A DNA stretch of 12,316 nucleotides. Source: a virus. Taxonomy: Duplodnaviria; Heunggongvirae; Uroviricota; Caudoviricetes. The DNA lies in IMG/VR virus record IMGVR_UViG_2563366829_000021, positions 1-12,316 of that record. One strand, given 5' to 3'. Below, piece after piece: positions 1-6,846 of the stretch. The notes under the pieces were generated by a model, which worked only from the letters and a program-made list of their open reading frames with translations, had not been told where the DNA came from and searched no databases. Position 1 is the stretch's first letter, and the number at the start of each line of letters is the position of its first letter. The position numbers were made by a program, and so were the translations under genes.

Positions 1-585
1 AAGCAGAAAAAGCTTATTATGCTTCCATCGGAAACGATGATCTGGCAGCCTGAGTTCACAGATAAAACACTCTCCAGGAAACCCGGGGCGGTTCACGTCG
101 ACGTGCTTACCAATCAGTTCGAGGTTCTTCACCTTGTCAGGCCATTTAATTTTTTTGAGGATTGTCTCTATCGAATCCTCGTTCATGTTCATGATGGTCG
201 ATGACAGATCAAAGCCGCTAAGCGTAGTGCGCCAGATTTTCGGCCACTCGCGGATTGGCTTAAGGCTCCCATCGTCGTTGAGGATGTCGATCACGTCCAT
301 CTGGTCGATCTCCACCAGGCGCATGAGAACGTAATCAGCACTGACGCGCATTCGTTTGTTGCGCTCCTCCATCAACTCGGCAATCCGTTTCTGAATGCGT
401 TCATCGCGCATCATGACACTGGCTTTAACTGCCGCTGTATTTGGGGAGAATCCTGCGTTAATCGCAGCCTGAGTCTGATTTTCAGGCGTTTTGATGTATG
501 ACTGGCAATAAGCCTCCTGCATTGCTGTTAGTGGCTTAAATTGCGTTGATTTGCGTTTATAGGTTTTAGGTTCAGCAGGCATCAT
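1..585 (-). CDS. Phage terminase small subunit (Terminase_2-like), partial: C-terminal end lies beyond the window start
   Basis: Manual minus-strand translation from the ATG at 585..583 runs with no stop to position 1 (MMPAEPKTYKRKSTQFKPLTAMQEAYCQSYIKTPENQTQAAINAGFSPNTAAVKASVMMRDERIQKRIAELMEERNKRMRVSADYVLMRLVEIDQ...). The Q-A-Y-C-Q-x-Y ... TQAAIxAG(F/Y)S ... RIQxRIAELxEER pattern matches terminase small subunit N-terminal HTH domains from memory. Absent from the ORF track because no stop lies in the window. GGTGG SD-like element 5-9 nt upstream. Confidence 0.7.
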   Translation of the reverse strand, partial: MMPAEPKTYKRKSTQFKPLTAMQEAYCQSYIKTPENQTQAAINAGFSPNTAAVKASVMMRDERIQKRIAELMEERNKRMRVSADYVLMRLVEIDQMDVIDILNDDGSLKPIREWPKIWRTTLSGFDLSSTIMNMNEDSIETILKKIKWPDKVKNLELIGKHVDVNRPGFPGECFICELRLPDHRFRWKHNKLFLL

Positions 586-592
586 AACCACC

Positions 593-624
593 GTGGTAAT
601 AGTTACCGTTGTGGTAATAGTACC
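593..624. repeat. Two direct copies of GTGGTAATAGT(T)ACC (593-607 and 611-624) in the leader of the terminase small-subunit gene
   Basis: Read directly from the sequence. Each copy is itself a near-palindrome (GGTAA-TAG-TTACC) and uses the same GGTAA/TTACC half-sites as the operator palindrome, but in inverted order. Confidence 0.45.
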
Positions 625-628
625 ATGC

Positions 629-654
629 AAAATAAAGCCGCCATAGTTGGCGGC
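629..654 (-). terminator. Rho-independent terminator for leftward (minus-strand) transcription, downstream of CDS 660..872
   Basis: Stem GCCGCC (637-642) / GGCGGC (649-654) with a 6-nt loop; on the minus-strand RNA it is followed by UUUAUUUUG. No U-tract in the plus orientation. Confidence 0.55.
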
Positions 655-659
655 AGTAT

Positions 660-872
660 TCAAAGTCCATCAAATTCATCGTAAAAACTCTCGTCAAGAT
701 ACCCTTTCCATTTACCGCGAATGAAAATTACATCCTCGCCGCAAGGGTGCTGACTGTCGATAACTATATCCCTCCTGGCGCAACCATACTTATGCATGAG
801 AAATTTAACCTCTTTCGGAAAATTAGCTGAGTTATCTCTCATATCTTCAAGGTCGTAGCGTATTTTTGGCAT
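660..872 (-). CDS. Hypothetical phage protein (70 aa)
   Basis: ORF-track ORF 660..893. Start placed at the internal ATG 872 (MPKIRYDLEDMRDN...) because a GAAGGTG SD-like sequence lies 5-10 nt upstream and the upstream gene stops at 890. Same strand as the operon. Confidence 0.5.
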   Translation of the reverse strand: MPKIRYDLEDMRDNSANFPKEVKFLMHKYGCARRDIVIDSQHPCGEDVIFIRGKWKGYLDESFYDEFDGL

Positions 873-889
873 AACACCTTCGTGACATG

Positions 890-1231
890 TCACACTATTA
901 ATTTCGTTTCATGCCAGCCTTTGGTCACCCAGCATTGCGAGTCACCATTACACGGGCATGAATTAACTGGAACTCTCTCGCCGCACTTACCGCAACGTTT
1001 TCTGCTGATCGATTTTATACGCCCGCGCACCCGGGCATCATCCTGGCGGATCAGCAGCGCGATGTACTCGGCCATTTCATAGGGATCTCGACCAGGGCGC
1101 CGGGCGGCGCAGTTCCGCTCCAGCATTTCAATTTCCTGAGCATCAAGCACAATCTCCAGCTTACGCACACCAGATGCAGCTTGTCTGGCTCTCTGAGCGG
1201 CTTTGCGCTCTGCTGCTGATTTAGCCATCAA
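890..1231 (-). CDS. Hypothetical small basic protein with C-terminal Cys cluster (CGKCG...CPCNG), possible zinc-binding
   Basis: 113-aa ORF, tandem ATG start at 1231/1228 with AGGT 8 nt upstream; overlaps the stop of the upstream gene (1221-1223). No family recognised. Confidence 0.5.
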   Translation of the reverse strand: MMAKSAAERKAAQRARQAASGVRKLEIVLDAQEIEMLERNCAARRPGRDPYEMAEYIALLIRQDDARVRGRIKSISRKRCGKCGERVPVNSCPCNGDSQCWVTKGWHETKLIV

Positions 1232-1502
1232 TATTTACCTTTATCGCGTATACCTTTACCGGTTTATCGCCGAAGTGGGGATGTGTGATTGTCTTGATTT
1301 CATATCCGTCATACGGGACGTCAATTCTACGACTGGAGTCGTCGCGCTTCGGATATCCCTTTGTGATAATCAGTCGGTCATAATCCCTGAACATAATTCG
1401 CTTATTCCAGTAGTCATTACACAGGCGATACTCTTCCGTTTTCTCTCCGCGAATGATGGCATCGAAGTATTCACCTTTAACGGCTAGTTGCAGGTTAGCC
1501 AC
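1221..1502 (-). CDS. ASCH/PUA-like domain phage protein (93 aa from a GTG start)
   Basis: Motif VKGEYFDAIIRGEKTEEYR resembles the ASCH-domain signature as I recall it. GTG start at 1502..1500 preceded by AGGAGG (1513-1508) with a 5-nt spacer. The longer ORF-track version (start 1631) would overlap the upstream gene by more than 100 nt. Confidence 0.5.
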   Translation of the reverse strand: MANLQLAVKGEYFDAIIRGEKTEEYRLCNDYWNKRIMFRDYDRLIITKGYPKRDDSSRRIDVPYDGYEIKTITHPHFGDKPVKVYAIKVNIDG

Positions 1503-2022
1503 GATTAACCTCCTGCTGCGGTGCTGCTGGCAGTGGCATCCAGTGGGTAATACTACCTGGATATAAACTCTTTGCTGGCCCCCAGTAGCCATCTGTATTA
1601 ACACGCATAACCTCACAGCCATCAAAACCATCAGTTACAAGAACGTATTCATAAGGTTCCGGCATCCTTTCGCTTACCGGAATCCAACCATCCGGAGTTG
1701 CCGGAGAGTTGCCATTTATATCGAAGTTTGGCTCTGCGTCCTGAACCAGGAGGATGTAACCATTCTTGGCAGTATCAAGTTCTAACGCCTCGGTGACGGT
1801 ACCGAAATAGCGATTACCTAAATCAGCATCACAAGTGCTTACATCAATGGAAACTTCCATCCCTTCGATTAATTCTGGCAAGTTGTAAGTTTGGCTTACA
1901 GGCTCTGCTTCCAGTGATGCCAGTGCAATTCGTGCCAGTTCCATTTGTTCGCCACGAGTAAGTCCGTTATCAAGCGGATTTTTAATGAATAATTCGATAC
2001 GTTCTTTGGTTATAGCGCTCAT
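1495..2022 (-). CDS. DUF551-family phage protein (175 aa)
   Basis: C-terminal W-I-P-V-S-E-R-M-P ... H-W-M-P-L-P pattern is typical of DUF551 as I recall it. ATG at 2022 with GGAGAG SD 8 nt upstream, 1 nt after the stop of the Ead-like gene. Confidence 0.6.
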   Translation of the reverse strand: MSAITKERIELFIKNPLDNGLTRGEQMELARIALASLEAEPVSQTYNLPELIEGMEVSIDVSTCDADLGNRYFGTVTEALELDTAKNGYILLVQDAEPNFDINGNSPATPDGWIPVSERMPEPYEYVLVTDGFDGCEVMRVNTDGYWGPAKSLYPGSITHWMPLPAAPQQEVNRG

Positions 2023-2023
2023 A

Positions 2024-2752
2024 TCACTCTCCTTTGATGCGAATGCCAGCGACGCGTGGCACATTAACTTCCACGATGCGCACAGTTGGTTTGTACATCT
2101 CAATCGCTGTCAGCCAGTCAGCGCCAGTCATGCGCTTTTCTGCATCGCCATTAGTCCACTTAACCGGTACACCAATAGCCTTCATCGCGATTTCTATTTC
2201 CCCGGCAATGGCGCTTTTTCCGCAACCAGTAAAACCAGAAACAACGACAAGAACTTCGCCTTTGGCTGGTTTTATTTCCCGCGCTTCCAGTTCTGCTATG
2301 CGCTTCTCTGATGCTTCAAGTAACGCCTGCTTATCGCGTAGCGCTTCTTCCAGTTCAGCAACATGGCACTCACTATCAATAAGGTTGTTCTCTGCGGCTT
2401 CCAGCTCAACACGCAGCTTCCCTACCGTTAGCGCAATATCCTCGTTCTCCTGATCGCGGCTTTTGATGTATTGCAGGTTTCTTTCCCGTTCATCCAGCAG
2501 TGCCAGCACGGTAGCTGGATTGGCTGCGGCGATGAATTCAGCATTGGCCTGCTGCTCCATTTGGAAATCTTCATAGAAACGGCTTTCTGGATGCGCTCCT
2601 TCAATTCTGCAAATGGGAATATATCCAGCAACTTCACGATGAATTAGTGCATCATCACCATCAAATCGGCCATCTCCATATTCGAGCGACCACTCGCCAC
2701 ACGTTGCTTTCTCTGCCGCCTCACGCAGTGCCTGATAGTCAATCTTGCTCAC
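2024..2752 (-). CDS. Ead/Ea22-like family protein (coiled-coil-rich, 242 aa)
   Basis: N-terminus MSKIDYQALREAAEKAT...GEW and a long Glu/Leu/Ala-rich coiled-coil segment resemble Ea22-like proteins of lambdoid prophages. GTG start at 2752 with AGGAGG 6 nt upstream; GTGA overlap with the upstream stop. Confidence 0.6.
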   Translation of the reverse strand: MSKIDYQALREAAEKATCGEWSLEYGDGRFDGDDALIHREVAGYIPICRIEGAHPESRFYEDFQMEQQANAEFIAAANPATVLALLDERERNLQYIKSRDQENEDIALTVGKLRVELEAAENNLIDSECHVAELEEALRDKQALLEASEKRIAELEAREIKPAKGEVLVVVSGFTGCGKSAIAGEIEIAMKAIGVPVKWTNGDAEKRMTGADWLTAIEMYKPTVRIVEVNVPRVAGIRIKGE

Positions 2753-3261
2753 TGGTTGCCTCCTTTGCGAAGCTGGGCGGCGATATCTTCGAGAACGCCA
2801 TCAGAGAATGAGCGGTCAAAATCGCCTTCCGGCGCATTAGCCATAAACTCAGTAGAGGTAAGAATCATCCGGGCAATATCCGCGGCGTTCTTCGCAGTAT
2901 CATCAATAAAACCAGCTTCCCAGGCAGCCAGCATTCTGTTCGCCACAAAGTAAGCGCCCTCCTTGCGTGCTTCAGTCTTCACTTCAGCCAGGAAAGCGTC
3001 GGTGGCTGGGGTTTCCGTGAAGTTGTCCTCCCAACCGTAGTACTCCTGACGACAGAAGTTATTAAATTCCTTCTCCGACTGTTTAAGCCCCGCATTCTCC
3101 GCCGCCAGCGCATTAGCACGCACCAGTTGCACTTCCAGTTGCGTTGCCAAATCGCTGATCAGCTTTGCCACACTGCGCATATCAACGGCACCACATTCTG
3201 CTTTCAGTTCCGAAGCCATCTCATGCCCGGCGGAAACTAACCCTTTGATATTACTTTCCAT
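2749..3261 (-). CDS. Hypothetical phage protein (170 aa)
   Basis: ORF with ATG at 3261 and AGGG SD 5 nt upstream; stop overlaps the start of the next gene. No family recognised. Confidence 0.55.
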   Translation of the reverse strand: MESNIKGLVSAGHEMASELKAECGAVDMRSVAKLISDLATQLEVQLVRANALAAENAGLKQSEKEFNNFCRQEYYGWEDNFTETPATDAFLAEVKTEARKEGAYFVANRMLAAWEAGFIDDTAKNAADIARMILTSTEFMANAPEGDFDRSFSDGVLEDIAAQLRKGGNQ

Positions 3262-3322
3262 CTTTACCCTCGCTTATCCACATAACTTATTGATTACATT
3301 GATAACTAAAAAGATCGTCGAT

Positions 3323-3667
3323 TTAGAACTCTTCGATGTTCCAGCCACCACCTGCTTTCTTTGGCTTAACCGTTACCCCGATGATTCGGAACGGATACTG
3401 ATCTGCGGCGACTTTGGTTTTCACCCTGGCGTCGTCGGTCCAGAAACCTTTCACTTCGTGCAGTTCCATCTCGCCGGTGGCGAGCATCACAGCGAAATCT
3501 GGCGTATAAAACGTGTTATCAGCTAACCGCAGCTTGATACCCTCGAACCGATACCAGGCGATTTCCCCTGCACGTTTACGCTGCTCAAGGTGCTGGCAAT
3601 ACGCAGATTCTGTTTTGTTCATCTGGCCTGTTTTGAGTCGACCAAGAGCCTGTATCTGTTTTCTCAT
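3323..3667 (-). CDS. DUF1064-like phage protein, possibly PD-(D/E)XK-fold nuclease
   Basis: 114-aa ORF; motif YTPDF...ELHEVKG...DDARVK is consistent with a D...E-x-K nuclease-like core and my recollection of DUF1064. ATG at 3667 sits directly downstream of a promoter-like element. Confidence 0.55.
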   Translation of the reverse strand: MRKQIQALGRLKTGQMNKTESAYCQHLEQRKRAGEIAWYRFEGIKLRLADNTFYTPDFAVMLATGEMELHEVKGFWTDDARVKTKVAADQYPFRIIGVTVKPKKAGGGWNIEEF

Positions 3668-3669
3668 GA

Positions 3670-3748
3670 TTTACCCCTGAGGTAATTAAAAACCACATAA
3701 GACACTAAATCAATAGATTTTAGAATATTTTATTACCCAGTAGGTAAT
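3670..3748 (-). promoter_or_regulatory. Internal promoter with two operator palindromes: ATTACC-CAGTA-GGTAAT (3732-3748) and TTTACC-CCTGA-GGTAAT (3670-3686) flanking a -35 TTGATT (plus 3708-3713) / 17 bp / -10 TTTAAT (plus 3685-3690), reading toward 3667
   Basis: Read from the minus strand: ATTACCTACTGGGTAAT-(18 nt)-TTGATT-(17 nt)-TTTAAT overlapping ATTACCTCAGGGGTAAA, then ATG. Same geometry as the PL-like promoter at 6768-6846. Confidence 0.5.
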
Positions 3749-3758
3749 CATCGAGACG

Positions 3759-3781
3759 TAAAAAAATGCGCTATCGCGCTG
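3759..3781 (-). terminator. Weak terminator-like element downstream of the P-like gene
   Basis: Short GC palindrome GCGC-GATA-GCGC on the minus-strand RNA followed by seven U. The stem is only 4-5 bp, so low confidence. Confidence 0.3.
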
Positions 3782-3784
3782 GTA

Positions 3785-4567
3785 TTACTTGATAAATCCT
3801 GCCGCCTTTCCCCGCCTGTATTCCTCCATCAGCCACTGCGCCGGTGTTATTCCCCCAAGGGTGGCGGCGTTAGGCATGCACCCGAAACTTCGCCCTGGTG
3901 GATGGTAAACGTCTCTCCCTGTGTCCGGAGGTGTACTCATGGGTTCTGGCTTTGCCTGTATGCTGATCACCGGATCGGGTATCTGCTGTCCGGAAGCCAC
4001 CTTTTTCGCCCAATCATCGAGCAGCCTGCGCGCGTGTTTCTCAACCTCAATCTCGCTAAGCTGGCGCTGATACATTGCACGGCGGGTATCACATACGACC
4101 CAGTACATAACCGGATGTCGCCACGGGAATCTTTCGGGACCACCAGGATATAAACTTTTTTCCTTGCTGTACCGGTGAAACTCCGCCATCACATCGTCAA
4201 TGGTGACGCCAAGAACCATCTTGCTGTCTTTGCACCACTTGATGAATTGCCCAGGCGACGGCCAGAACGGAGATTCACTGGCGCGGGCGTGGCGCATACC
4301 AGCGTTAACCTGTTCCATTGTTGTGATCCCATTCTCCAGAAACGCAAGCATCCATTGTTTTCGAAATTCGTTTAGCTTTCCTTGCTCGCTGATAGCAGCG
4401 ATGCTGCCTGGAAATGCAGCCTGTAACTGGACAAACATTTCGTTGAAAATTCTTGCAACCTGCTCCTTCTTTGCCCTTTCATCGTCAGCAGAAGCAACCG
4501 CCGTCGAGTGGTCATGCCCACCACGAAAGCGATCGTACTCATTAAGAAGTTCTGGAGTTGATTTCAT
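3785..4567 (-). CDS. Replication protein P-like (lambda P family, DnaB helicase loader)
   Basis: WMLAFLENGITTMEQVNAGMRHARASESPFWPSPGQFIKWC aligns almost residue-for-residue with the lambda P segment WVLAFRENGITTMEQVNAGMRVARRQNRPFLPSPGQFVAWC as I recall it. Start chosen at ATG 4567 (MKSTPELLNEYD, compare lambda MKNIAAQMVNFD) with GAGGTG SD upstream; overlaps the 3' end of the O-like gene. Confidence 0.8.
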   Translation of the reverse strand: MKSTPELLNEYDRFRGGHDHSTAVASADDERAKKEQVARIFNEMFVQLQAAFPGSIAAISEQGKLNEFRKQWMLAFLENGITTMEQVNAGMRHARASESPFWPSPGQFIKWCKDSKMVLGVTIDDVMAEFHRYSKEKSLYPGGPERFPWRHPVMYWVVCDTRRAMYQRQLSEIEVEKHARRLLDDWAKKVASGQQIPDPVISIQAKPEPMSTPPDTGRDVYHPPGRSFGCMPNAATLGGITPAQWLMEEYRRGKAAGFIK

Positions 4568-5375
4568 CCCACACCTCATCTATCCAGTCAGTGTTATGCC
4601 AGTCAAGGCTCTTTCTGACTTCACCTGATTTCTGTCTACAGAACTGGATGCGCCTTGCCAGCTTCTGCTCCCACTGTGCCTGATGGTATGCCTTACCCTC
4701 AGCCATCCAGTAAATTCTGAACTCTGCAAGTTCCTGTGCCGTTGGCAGACTGTCCAGGTAGATTCCCTGCAATGAGCTTTTCCGAAGAAAGTCATCTGAT
4801 GGCTGCCATTGTTCATGCATGACAAATTTACCTAATTGCCCTGGCCCACCAGGAGGAACAAAGTTATTCATCACGGCGTTGTTTGCGACGGGGTCATGAG
4901 GCACAGAATCCCCGGTTTTTGTCCTGCTCTCCCTCTCTTGGTTAAATGACTGGTTATATGACTGGTTCTGGATCCCGTTTTTGGGATCATTCAACATCCC
5001 GTTTTTGGGATCATTCAACATCCCGTTTTTGGGTATATTCCCGTTTTCGGTAACATTACCGTTTTCGGGTTCATTGCCCCCCTCCCGGTTGCCTTTAATG
5101 TTCCCGTTTTTGGTTATATTAAGAGAGAAAACCCGCACTCTTTTTGTCGCTCCCTTTCTCTCTCCGGTATCTGAAATAAGCCCCATTTTCATGAGCGATA
5201 TAAGCCCGGCCTGCACGGTTTTTTTATTCAGGCAAGTGTCTTTAACGAGGCGTTCTATGCTGGGGTAGCAGAGGTTATATTCATCGGCTCTGTCAGCCAT
5301 CGAGAGCAGTATGAGCTTTAATGATGAGCTACCTGGATCTGTCTCCCAGGCCCAATCTGTTGCATGTCTGCTCAT
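4542..5375 (-). CDS. Replication initiator, lambda-O-like: N-terminal winged-HTH DNA-binding domain, Asn/Gly-rich repeat linker, C-terminal domain
   Basis: 277-aa ORF directly upstream of the P-like gene. N-terminal LKLILLSMADRADEYNLCYPSIERLVKDTCLNKKTVQAGLISLMKMGLIS looks like a replication-initiator HTH. The central low-complexity linker is encoded by the tandem DNA repeats at 4973-5120. GGAG SD upstream of ATG 5375. Confidence 0.7.
   Translation of the reverse strand: MSRHATDWAWETDPGSSSLKLILLSMADRADEYNLCYPSIERLVKDTCLNKKTVQAGLISLMKMGLISDTGERKGATKRVRVFSLNITKNGNIKGNREGGNEPENGNVTENGNIPKNGMLNDPKNGMLNDPKNGIQNQSYNQSFNQERESRTKTGDSVPHDPVANNAVMNNFVPPGGPGQLGKFVMHEQWQPSDDFLRKSSLQGIYLDSLPTAQELAEFRIYWMAEGKAYHQAQWEQKLARRIQFCRQKSGEVRKSLDWHNTDWIDEVWDEINSRTS
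4973..5120. repeat. Iteron-like tandem repeat array inside the O-like gene (candidate origin of replication)
   Basis: Two exact 24-bp copies TCCCGTTTTTGGGATCATTCAACA (4973-4996, 4997-5020), then degenerate 18-bp units TCCCGTTTTTGGGTATAT, TCCCGTTTTCGGTAACAT, TACCGTTTTCGGGTTCAT and a further TTCCCGTTTTTGGTTATATT at 5101-5120. Each unit has a CCCG-T4/5-GGG dyad core. Confidence 0.6.
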
Positions 5376-5390
5376 GATTAATCTCCGCTA

Positions 5391-5591
5391 TCAGCTTGAG
5401 TGTTGTGGGGAGGAATTAATCATGATCTGCTTAATCTCTGCCCTGATGCGACGGTTTGATTCCATGGTGCACTCAGCACAGTGTCCGTTGTAAACCCAGC
5501 GTTCACTGTCATGTCCATGCTTACATGGTTTTCCGGTGTAGTAGCGTTTAAGTCCGCGCTTTGCGGCATCAATACGTGTAATGATTTCCAT
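5391..5591 (-). CDS. Small Cys/His-rich protein (C-K-H-G-H ... C-A-E-C), possible zinc-ribbon regulator at the cII-equivalent position
   Basis: ORF-track ORF 5391..5654; start uncertain (ATG at 5591 with AGGG 8 nt upstream preferred; 5627 and 5654 are alternatives that would run into the terminator region). No homolog recognised. Confidence 0.4.
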   Translation of the reverse strand: MEIITRIDAAKRGLKRYYTGKPCKHGHDSERWVYNGHCAECTMESNRRIRAEIKQIMINSSPQHSS

Positions 5592-5700
5592 GGTAAGCCC
5601 TGTTATTAGTATTGGGATTACGGTCATTTTGTGCTGACACAAAAAAAAGATCAACCAGATTTGGTTTTTTGTTACCTTTTAGGTGCGAATAGATATGAAA

Positions 5701-5720
5701 AGACCGCCGGATGGCGGTCT
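5701..5720 (-). terminator. Hairpin terminator immediately downstream of the Cro-like gene (tR1-like position)
   Basis: Perfect 8-bp stem AGACCGCC / GGCGGTCT with a 4-nt loop; minus-strand RNA continues UUUCAUAUCUAUU (interrupted U-tract). Confidence 0.5.
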
Positions 5721-5741
5721 ACAGAGGGTTGTGGCTGGATA

Positions 5742-5972
5742 TCATGAGTAGAAGAAGTATGCCAGTTCTGCTTTTGAGCGCAGCCATTGTCTTGTTTTAC
5801 AGGCTTTAAAAAGCCCATTCATCAATACCTTACCTGGCATTTTGCGCTTACCTGTTAAGTGAGTCTGGATATAGTGACTCGTCGTTCCGGCTTCCTGTGC
5901 GAAGGCTTCACGCTCATCCGGAGTAAGTGCAAGCCAGTGCTTTTTGAAATCGAAATGTCCGTTATCGCTCAT
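5742..5972 (-). CDS. Cro-like small DNA-binding regulator (76 aa)
   Basis: Divergent from the repressor across an operator-rich intergenic region; sequence LTPDEREAFAQEAGTTSHYIQTHLTGKRKMPGKVL looks like a short HTH protein. Position and orientation match cro. Confidence 0.55.
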   Translation of the reverse strand: MSDNGHFDFKKHWLALTPDEREAFAQEAGTTSHYIQTHLTGKRKMPGKVLMNGLFKACKTRQWLRSKAELAYFFYS

Positions 5973-6126
5973 AGCTATTGCCTGATATTTATTTCAGATA
6001 ATAAATATTCACCCATAAGGTAACAAAAATCAAGGATAGTTACCTATGGGGTGCATTTACCTGTTGGGTAATATTGCTTTAAATTGAATCATCTACTGAT
6101 TCATATATGAGGCGATTTTCCAGAAA
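5973..6126. promoter_or_regulatory. OR-like divergent promoter/operator region between the Cro-like and repressor genes
   Basis: Strong palindrome TTTACC-TGTTG-GGTAAT at 6056-6072; two degenerate mirror-image copies TCACC-CATAA-GGTAAC (6009-6024) and TTACC-TATGG-GGTGC (6040-6054) flanking a -35-like TTGATT (minus, plus coords 6028-6033). Candidate leftward -10 TATTAT (plus 5998-6003). Individual promoter hexamers are tentative. Confidence 0.6.
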
Positions 6127-6711
6127 ATGAAAAGTATCCAGGACGTCCGCAGGCAAAATCTCAACGACTTGATCGACCGTGAATTCAATGGTGTTCAGAC
6201 GCGGATGGCAGAAAAACTTGGAACTCAGGCAAATCTGGTAAACCGCTGGGCTCTTGGCAAGAAGGTTATCGGCGACCAGGTTGCGCGAAAAATTGAAGCT
6301 GCCGCCAATAAACCCCGTAACTGGCTTGATATCGATCGCTCGCTTTCTCAGGAAGGTTTTCAGCCTGTCGGCCCAAGCGACATTGGTCAGCTGGCGGCTC
6401 ACAACCTGGAACGCTGGATGAGCGAAAGCCGCGACCTTTCAACGCAGGGAAAACTTCACCGCGCATCCGGCGTCGCCCAGGTGACAATCAGTCGCCTGTT
6501 AAACAATGAGGTCAGCGTTTCCATTTCCACCCTGGAGAATGTTGCATCCGCATTCGGGCGTCACGGATATGAACTACTGATTCACCCGCACGACCCTGCG
6601 ACTATCAACTATGACCGCTCACGCTACGCATTGTTACCCGAAACCGAGAAAGCAAAGATCGAAAGTTACATTGAATTTGTCATCAACCAGAACGAAAAAA
6701 GCAAACAATAA
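6127..6711 (+). CDS. Prophage repressor (CI-equivalent) with two tandem XRE-type HTH domains and no recognisable S24 peptidase domain
   Basis: 194 aa. HTH-like segment 1 around residues 10-70 (NLNDLIDREFNGVQTRMAEKLGTQANLVNRWALGKKVIGDQVARKIEAAANKPRNWL); HTH-like segment 2 around residues 95-150 (LSTQGKLHRASGVAQVTISRLLNNEVSVSISTLENVASAFG). The C-terminus shows no LexA-type Ala-Gly/Ser/Lys pattern. Followed by a strong terminator. Confidence 0.7.
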   Translation: MKSIQDVRRQNLNDLIDREFNGVQTRMAEKLGTQANLVNRWALGKKVIGDQVARKIEAAANKPRNWLDIDRSLSQEGFQPVGPSDIGQLAAHNLERWMSESRDLSTQGKLHRASGVAQVTISRLLNNEVSVSISTLENVASAFGRHGYELLIHPHDPATINYDRSRYALLPETEKAKIESYIEFVINQNEKSKQ

Positions 6712-6767: not shown

Positions 6768-6846
6768 ATTACCTTACGGGTAATTTTTTTAACTCATATC
6801 TATTGACACCAAACCAAATAAGCATAATTATTACCCCAACGGTAAC
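6768..6846 (+). promoter_or_regulatory. PL-like early promoter with two operator palindromes: ATTACC-TTACG-GGTAAT (6768-6784) and ATTACC-CCAAC-GGTAAC (6830-6846); -35 TTGACA (6803-6808), 17-bp spacer, -10 AATTAT (6826-6831)
   Basis: Consensus -35 hexamer; upstream operator centred about 30 bp upstream of the -35; downstream operator overlaps the last 2 nt of the -10 and the predicted start site. Confidence 0.6.

Follow-up and report, generated by a model that had tools for sequence, protein, structure and literature searches.

Introduction

In bacteriophages lambda and P22, the Q antiterminator, PR', tR' and the lysis cassette are located upstream of the terminase. The C1 operators of P1, the conserved inverted repeats of phiC31 and the stoperators of L5 represent systems in which one repressor serves many dispersed intergenic sites; the stoperators of L5 are asymmetric and act in an orientation-dependent manner. 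Staphylococcal phages rely on an activator and place a RinA-controlled late promoter upstream of terS, the gene encoding the terminase small subunit (PMC3152322). For Uetakevirus, the annotated genome of epsilon15 (NC_004775.2) lists a 16-bp 'protein_bind: repressor' feature at 12..27, immediately preceding terS, and the hairpin in front of this site is recorded as a rho-independent terminator (39646..39672). Four more repressor sites are annotated in epsilon15, where they flank the repressor gene on its PL side and follow the replication genes, and all five conform to ATTACC-N5-GGTAAT. Our literature search, beyond the primary epsilon15 genome paper and the papers on Rep/Ant of SPC32H, a phage of the same genus, returned nothing on Uetakevirus operators, late promoters or genome ends.

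What separates early from late genes when the terminase follows directly upon the early operon? Are the repeats found in such a terminase leader a packaging signal, the target of a late activator, or operators of the prophage repressor? We addressed these questions in a stretch of 12,316 nucleotides (IMG/VR record IMGVR_UViG_2563366829_000021, hereafter referred to as the window), and compared its terS leader with those of related phages and prophages.

Results

Early genes adjoin terS in a Uetakevirus prophage

Judged by sequence comparison, the window is a segment of a phiV10/epsilon15-type (Uetakevirus) prophage, and not of a lambda/P22-type lambdoid element. At the nucleotide level it is ~97% identical, over 70–80% of its length, to vB_EcoP_PAS61, phiV10, phiv142-3 and TL-2011b, and ~80% identical to epsilon15-like Salmonella and Enterobacter phages. 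SPC32H matches the 5' region of terS from just after the terminator onward, and its Rep has a homologue in the window. The gene order is that of Uetakevirus: int, early-left genes, rep, cro, replication genes, accessory genes, a gp49-like gene, and then terS-terL. The gene for the prophage repressor Rep (6127..6711) is encoded on the plus strand, the genes within 1–6000 on the minus strand. The latter comprise a cro-like gene (5972–5742), DnaT-like and lambda-P-like replication genes followed by DUF1064, Ea22-like, DUF551 and ASCH genes, a 112-aa gene (890..1228) homologous to phiV10 p55 and epsilon15 gp49, which is the last conserved early gene, and a 70-aa accessory gene (660..872, ATG at 872, TGA at 660–662), so that the early-right genes end at 660. 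Next comes terS (96..582, minus strand), truncated at its 3' end by the terminal part of an IS3-family insertion sequence (1..95). This insertion is context and lies outside the regulatory element described below. Window 1–96 matches, with 99% identity, the end of an IS3-family element that is annotated at another place in E. coli MS 196-1, and the identity of TerS to its relatives breaks off at residue 165. E. coli MS 196-1 carries the same prophage at guaA with terS intact, 100% identical over window 91–3000.

The original prediction held that the early operon runs into the terminase gene with neither Q nor a lysis module in between. Both parts of this claim stand. Only a terminator and repeats separate the early operon from terS, and searches against Pfam, PHROGs and NCBIfam revealed no Q or lysis family among the ORFs from cro to terS. 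Lysis genes were expected elsewhere, and in phiV10 and epsilon15 holin, endolysin and Rz/Rz1 indeed follow the tail-fibre and O-antigen genes, next to attP-int; as the window breaks off within terS, their location in the present element is inferred from such relatives, among them the MS 196-1 prophage. The arrangement had also been taken for a departure from the canonical order. It is instead the norm for Uetakevirus, and the element is not lambdoid. The succession p55/gp49, terminator, terS, terL is found in phiV10 and epsilon15, and the same order recurs in Salmonella PAT1, Enterobacter BUCT554 and two Klebsiella phages. In epsilon15, the gp49-like gene is likewise followed by the terminator, the operator and terS, which is read from its ATG.

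Unlike epsilon15, the window has the 70-aa gene in front of the terminator. This gene belongs to phrog_1541 (PHROGs, E=3e-39), is complete in roughly one third of the 80 close relatives compared and has shrunk to the remnant MHDEFDGF* in phiV10 and PAS61. Its slot is variable, with other genes occupying it in Enterobacter and Klebsiella phages.

The terminator itself was predicted to follow the accessory gene (660..872), and both features are present on the minus strand. This intrinsic terminator (629..654), which ends the early-right operon, consists of a stem at 654–637 with 7 pairs (6 of them G-C) and a loop of 4, followed by a U-run at 636–629 (TTTATTTT). The hairpin also appears in the RNA fold. 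For comparison we retrieved 291 related loci from IMG/VR with four TerS queries, which yielded 89 distinct leaders from Escherichia, Salmonella, Enterobacter and Klebsiella phages; 52 of these 89 contain the same hairpin.

The repeats in the terS leader match the immunity operators

Between the terminator and terS, the 11-mer GTGGTAATAGT occurs exactly at 593–603 and 611–621, 18 nt apart; by our estimate, such a repetition within 141 nt is expected ~0.002 times. On the minus strand the repeat copies read GGTACTATTACCAC and GGTAACTATTACCAC, with a 1-nt indel between them. A 14-bp direct repeat had been described here (593–624). The repeat is present, 11 nt of it exact, but the conserved unit is a pair of adjacent 15-bp palindromes, and close relatives differ in the outermost GGTA of the first copy (GGTAC, GTTAC, GATAC, GGTAT).

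The distal palindrome, O1 (603..617, minus strand, TTACC-ACAAC-GGTAA), is a perfect match to TTACC-N5-GGTAA, and the proximal, operator-like palindrome, O2 (585..599, minus strand, TTACC-ACGGT-GGTTA), deviates by one mismatch. O2 covers the Shine-Dalgarno sequence of terS (GGTGG, 588..592, minus strand, as read from the sequence) and ends on the A of the first ATG (585–583). Head to tail, the minus strand of the leader reads GGTAC-TA-[TTACC ACAAC GGTAA]-CTA-[TTACC ACGGT GGTTA]-TGATG. The direct repeat results from the similarity between O1 and O2 in their left halves and flanks. The leader repeats are thus, by prediction, two abutting operators of the prophage repressor. O1 is homologous to the repressor site annotated upstream of terS in epsilon15 (ATTACCAAAACGGTAA in epsilon15, ATTACCACAACGGTAA in the window), whereas the second, imperfect operator over the Shine-Dalgarno sequence is not annotated in the epsilon15 record.

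The repeats had been proposed to share their GGTAA/TTACC half-sites with the operators, and TTACC-N5-GGTAA does flank the repressor gene as well. Six exact copies are present in the window (603–617, 3671–3685, 3733–3747, 6057–6071, 6769–6783 and 6831–6845) against ~0.01 expected by estimate. Allowing up to one mismatch adds 585–599 and 6009–6023, for 8 copies against 0.15 expected, a number that 0 of 200 shuffles reach. The PR/PRM operators (6009..6071) lie between the cro-like gene and rep; the one-mismatch copy at 6009–6023 is located in the spacer of PR (TTGTTA-17-TATTAT), and the copy at 6057–6071 is exact. The PL operators (6769..6845), at 6769–6783 and 6831–6845, are 62 bp apart, and the tool-called PL (TTGACA-17-AATTAT) stops on the first T of 6831–6845. 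As copies of the motif overlap both PL and PR, we regard them as immunity operators.

A third operator pair (3671..3747; 3671–3685 and 3733–3747) follows the P-gene terminator and abuts the start of the DUF1064 gene, forming a parallel module. Here, the two operators are 62 bp apart and have TTGATT-17-TTTAAT between them, which runs directly into TACC; the proximal operator comes to within 3 nt of the ATG. One repressor site is annotated at the homologous position of epsilon15 (35906..35922). The whole genome of phiV10 contains 8 exact and 6 one-mismatch sites (0.05 and 1.26 expected, respectively), all of them intergenic and several directly after terminators, namely those following cro, P, p55 and terL. 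The recurring module consists of a gene, a terminator, one or more operators, and the next gene. The presence of the motif at PL and PR and at ~14 intergenic positions in phiV10 points to the prophage repressor as its ligand, possibly shared with Cro.

O1 is retained in all related leaders

It had been considered that the repeat might be absent from related prophages. This is not so: O1 is exact in all 89 distinct leaders, while its 5-nt spacer occurs in 14 forms. Information per column is maximal at the ten half-site positions of O1 and low in the spacer, and the half-sites show no compensatory changes. Invariant half-sites, a free spacer and the lack of compensatory changes argue for recognition of DNA by a protein, and not for an RNA stem. 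O2 is found in ~70 of the 89 leaders, always with exactly one mismatch (TTACT..GGTAA or TTACC..GGTTA). It is missing from ~18 Klebsiella-type leaders, and one leader (L058) has an extra mismatch and falls below the one-mismatch cut-off. Among 79 near-identical E. coli loci, a manual count gave 1 variable site in the 20 half-site positions versus ~8 in the rest. Hardly any variation is seen among the 89 leaders in columns -10 to -5 ahead of the ATG.

The cognate repressor gene is present in the window. Its product (6127–6711) carries an HTH_3 domain and is homologous to SPC32H Rep (PDB 5D50; E=3.5e-42 over residues 1–190), which is described as a DNA-binding tetramer (PMC9638917). At PR of the Salmonella and Klebsiella relatives, operators are likewise arranged in tandem, 17 bp apart, a spacing that fits a Rep oligomer on two adjacent palindromes. 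Cro may equally use the leader operators, perhaps during lytic growth. A motif search of the window found no LexA box. We found no heteroimmune relative: every relative examined, down to ~68% DNA identity in terS, has the same half-sites.

A candidate promoter fused to the operators

What could operators achieve at this position? We think it probable that 585–654 is a cassette marking the boundary between the early-right and late operons, gated by Rep on O1/O2. The terminator (654–629) would halt early-right transcription, and in the lysogen a Rep oligomer on O1 (617–603) and O2 (599–585) would bar RNA polymerase from terS-terL. Rep might do so by occluding a weak promoter, with a -35 element RTGnTA just upstream of O1, O1 itself as the spacer and a -10 element AAnnAT fused to O2, or it might act as a roadblock and stop transcripts coming from upstream. 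Inactivation of Rep would open the gate.

In the window, the putative -10 element is AACTAT (599..604, minus strand), fused to O2, and the putative, weak -35 element is ATGGTA (621..626, minus strand), 16 nt from it. Other leader types read AATTAT, AATAAT, AACAAT or TAAAAT in the -10 register, with A2 and T6 always kept. Upstream, all 89 leaders share T at -8, G at -7, T at -5 and A at -4, counted from O1. Such a promoter would yield a near-leaderless terS mRNA.

Alternatively, the leader may have no promoter at all and serve as a pure, stoperator-like roadblock, in which Rep at O1/O2 backs up the terminator against read-through. A consensus promoter scan of 300–1400 called none, which agrees with this alternative, as does the presence of operators after the terminators that follow cro and P. 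In addition, the terminator is missing from 37 of the 89 leader types. In the Enterobacter and some Klebsiella types, no terminator lies between terS and the upstream gene, and that gene is preceded by a promoter (TTGACT-17-TATACT) overlapped by a near-consensus LexA box; O1, together with O2 in the Enterobacter type (the Klebsiella type lacks O2), would hence be the only barrier there. However, the conservation of O1 is independent of the upstream context. In 86 of 89 leaders, the unchanging TG.TA block and the AAnnAT hexamer stand at sigma-70 spacing, and the best sigma-70-like pair occupies one register there, with the -35 element ending 3 nt before O1 and a spacer of 16–18 nt. These pairs score 6–9 of 12, with 6 for the window and up to 9 for Enterobacter-type leaders. 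Moreover, the bona fide PL shows the same fusion, its AATTAT being joined to TACC exactly as proposed for the leader, and a -10 element followed by TACC occurs at the DUF1064 module and in all leader types. We judge the promoterless roadblock unlikely and favor a gate in which Rep would occlude a weak leader promoter, block read-through, or do both. Rep alone offers no obvious delay between early and late transcription, so another factor may be needed.

An RNA hairpin in the leader

Could the leader act as RNA instead? Transcripts entering from the upstream flank might fold into a long hairpin that hides the Shine-Dalgarno sequence and AUG of terS. The segment 572–630 folds at -20.7 kcal/mol (z = -3.6) with the Shine-Dalgarno sequence and both AUGs paired, comparable folds are obtained for most leader types, and in Klebsiella types that lack O2 the outer stem comprises 9 bp (GGCAUGGUA/UACCAUGCC). 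Yet two tandem palindromes make a fold unavoidable, and some leader types fold no better than shuffled sequences (z of about -0.3 to -0.8). Across 28 aligned leaders and 20 pairs, one pair covaries, from A-U to G-C, but this is the only pair with both sides changed; 10 of the 20 never vary, and at least as many doubly-changed cells as observed arise in 15 of 500 shuffles. A scan of 300–1300 against Rfam gave no match at E<=1. Identical half-sites at PL and PR, in both orientations, again speak for recognition of DNA. With a single covarying pair, we retain control by an RNA hairpin as a minor and rather improbable rival to repression by Rep; as a secondary layer on top of it, a hairpin is possible.

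A packaging signal or an activator site?

The original prediction had offered a late activator or the terminase small subunit as ligands of the repeats. Both proposals are disfavored by the occurrence of the identical motif at PL, at PR and at ~14 intergenic positions in phiV10. In their repetition and their place directly upstream of terS, the leader repeats resemble the R sites of lambda cosB, as a pac or cosB-like site recognized by TerS might. A packaging signal, however, should be unique and not recur genome-wide at immunity promoters, and public Uetakevirus records start at differing, arbitrary points, none of them reporting an end at the leader. We consider a TerS site highly improbable.

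The same low probability applies to a late-activator site, for instance one bound by the 112-aa protein encoded just upstream. The gene for this protein is the last conserved early gene, PHROGs labels its family as 'transcriptional regulator' (phrog_536, E=6e-55), and the leader promoter would be weak, as activator-dependent promoters are. Against this, the half-sites are those of the immunity operators, and a separate conserved 12-bp palindrome, GTGACATGTCAC (882..893), is a better candidate for the site of another factor. This palindrome overlaps the stop codon of the upstream gene and occurs 2–3 times per genome, between the gene stop and the terminator in the cases inspected.

The 112-aa protein remains a candidate regulator in its own right. 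It is 75–95% identical across 24 aligned Enterobacteriaceae homologues, with Cys 80, 83, 92, 94 and 100 invariant; it has no Pfam or PDB match and no detectable relation to Q, and its AF2 model is of low confidence (pLDDT 64). A ribbon-helix-helix reading of this protein comes from a sub-threshold NCBIfam match (E=0.055) and from the helix pattern.

The start codon of terS

The conserved start of terS is the ATG at 582–580, which aligns with the epsilon15 start; an alternative ATG is located at 585–583, and in one relative (leader L121) ATT replaces this first ATG. Several records, namely phiV10, PAS61 and RefSeq genomes of E. coli, instead annotate TerS from a TTG at 663 (225 aa), and in the E. 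coli type no stop interrupts this frame. We consider such a coding N-terminal extension extremely improbable. Within terS, 47 of the 49 sites that vary among 79 close loci fall on third codon positions, compared with 7 of 10 non-synonymous changes in the 81-nt extension. An in-frame stop lies 6–84 nt upstream of the ATG in 43 of 89 leader types, the extension would include the terminator hairpin, epsilon15 terS begins at its ATG, and the Pfam domain (Terminase_2, E=1.2e-28) begins at residue 19 of the short TerS. On the substitution pattern and the in-frame stops we reject the extended protein, and the 225-aa TerS of RefSeq is probably a start-codon mis-call. In the 225-aa TerS annotated for phiV10, PAS61 and many RefSeq prophages of E. 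coli, 27 codons are most likely non-coding and run across the terminator and the two operators.

Discussion

The operator and terminator upstream of terS are homologous to features annotated in epsilon15, and the gene order is the norm for the genus. The core of our finding was therefore already known, as a prediction. Our analysis adds the second operator over the ribosome-binding site and a likely start mis-annotation; it also shows that O1 is universally conserved and that the terminator-operator module recurs, and it proposes a weak promoter. Direct repression at the terminase leader, and not lambda-style control through Q, is the probable means by which a widespread group of enterobacterial prophages silences its late genes. 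Those who engineer reporter phages from phiV10 or SPC32H should treat the 45 bp before terS as regulatory. Three elements now frame the timing of late transcription, namely the putative promoter in the leader, the GTGACATGTCAC palindrome and the 112-aa protein.

How might these elements work together? Tentatively, and as a reading more likely wrong than right, we suggest that Uetakeviruses lack an antitermination cascade. Each early or late unit would end in a terminator and transcription would restart from a weak, near-leaderless promoter fused to Rep operators, such that Rep directly gates the terminase and head-tail operons. The Cys-rich 112-aa protein and the GTGACATGTCAC palindromes before the terminators might then set the early-to-late timing, with the protein serving as an activator or as a new kind of antiterminator.

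The comparison with described systems reveals both shared and distinct traits. As in lambda and P22, early genes and late operon are set apart by a terminator, and the early genes close with a small conserved gene that resembles a regulator. In contrast to lambda and P22, no Q-family protein was detected among the early-right ORFs of the window, the lysis genes of the relatives are found at the far end of the late operon, and operators of the repressor lie directly on the late-operon leader. The layout resembles that of RinA-controlled staphylococcal phages in that a packaging/late control region immediately precedes terS, after the last early gene; RinA is an activator, however, whereas the motif found here is that of the immunity repressor. 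The likeness to P1, phiC31 and L5 lies in the use of one repressor with scattered sites, 14 of them in phiV10, by which several units would be silenced directly. Unlike the sites of those phages, the operators described here are symmetric 15-bp palindromes, often paired at distances of 17–18, 48 or 62 bp, and belong to a repressor of a different family.

The terminase gene and its leader

Where does the small subunit gene of the terminase (terS) begin? Public records annotate TerS as a 225-residue protein read from an in-frame TTG, a frame that crosses the terminator (window 629-654) as well as both operators of the leader (O1, 603-617; O2, 585-599), the predicted repressor sites. Annotations of this kind are found in phiV10 (TerS at 41..715), PAS61 and NZ_CP146681 (TerS at 1390478..1391152); the stretch concerned is window 583-663 on the minus strand. 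Both the pattern of substitutions and the stop codons that relatives carry in frame point to the ATG at 582 or 585 as the true start. The gene is also interrupted: an IS3-family element has inserted after approximately codon 163, and its terminus makes up the left end of the window (1-95). Since terS is broken by this element, the prophage copy in the window is probably unable to package DNA. E. coli MS 196-1 carries the same prophage with an intact terS and is 100% identical over window 91-3000.

Genes and sites upstream of terS

The last conserved early gene ahead of terS is always the one encoding a 112-residue protein (window 890-1228, minus strand). Aligned homologues from across Enterobacteriaceae, 24 in all, are 75–95% identical and share five invariant cysteines (positions 80, 83, 92, 94 and 100), all in the C-terminal third, while the N-terminus is basic. 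The protein is without a match in Pfam or PDB, and its AF2 model is of low confidence. Across the stop codon of this gene lies a perfect 12-bp palindrome, GTGACATGTCAC (window 882-893), found in two to three copies per genome, where we estimate a chance expectation of ~0.005. Copies are located in phiV10 at 2262 and 19493, and in related phages at 22108, 24559 and 38537 (L324), 14178 (L008), and 11660 and 23404 (L009). Wherever its setting was inspected, in phiV10, epsilon15, PAT1 and the window itself, the palindrome has a gene stop on one side and an intrinsic terminator on the other. GTGACATGTCAC may be a site for the cysteine-rich 112-residue protein.

The slot between this gene and terS is variable. 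In the window it holds a gene for 70 residues (660-872, minus strand; phrog_1541), of which about one third of 80 close relatives keep an intact copy; in phiV10 and PAS61 it has shrunk to an 8-codon remnant, MHDEFDGF*. Enterobacter and Klebsiella relatives harbor a different small gene of 86–109 codons, the 109-residue version of which is labelled UmuD-like in one record. Its promoter, TTGACT-17-TATACT (TGTACT in one relative), is overlapped by a LexA box, TACTGTTTAAAT(A/G)TACAGTA (L008 11583-11660, L009 11664-11738, L325 13585-13660). Two of these phages have no terminator between the slot gene and the terS operators.

Operator spacing and associated repeats

Operator pairs recur exactly 62 bp apart, centre to centre, and enclose a promoter (window 3671-3747 and 6769-6845; epsilon15 32554/32616). 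This constant distance, about six helical turns with the promoter bracketed, suggests that one repressor oligomer loops or bridges the two sites. phiV10 also has three copies of a further motif, (C/T)(A/T)TATGTGGTT (3311, 20924 and 35119), each of them intergenic and on the plus strand, ~45 nt past an operator and directly ahead of another GGTAA/TTACC half-site. These copies precede the portal cluster, the tail fibre gene and the DUF1064 gene; the window has the motif at ~3690-3697.

Within the DnaT-like replication gene (4542-5375), TGGGATCATTCAACATCCCGTTTTTGGG is repeated in tandem, its two copies (window 4982-5025) having a period of 24 bp. By analogy with lambda, whose ori resides inside gene O, these repeats may be origin iterons.
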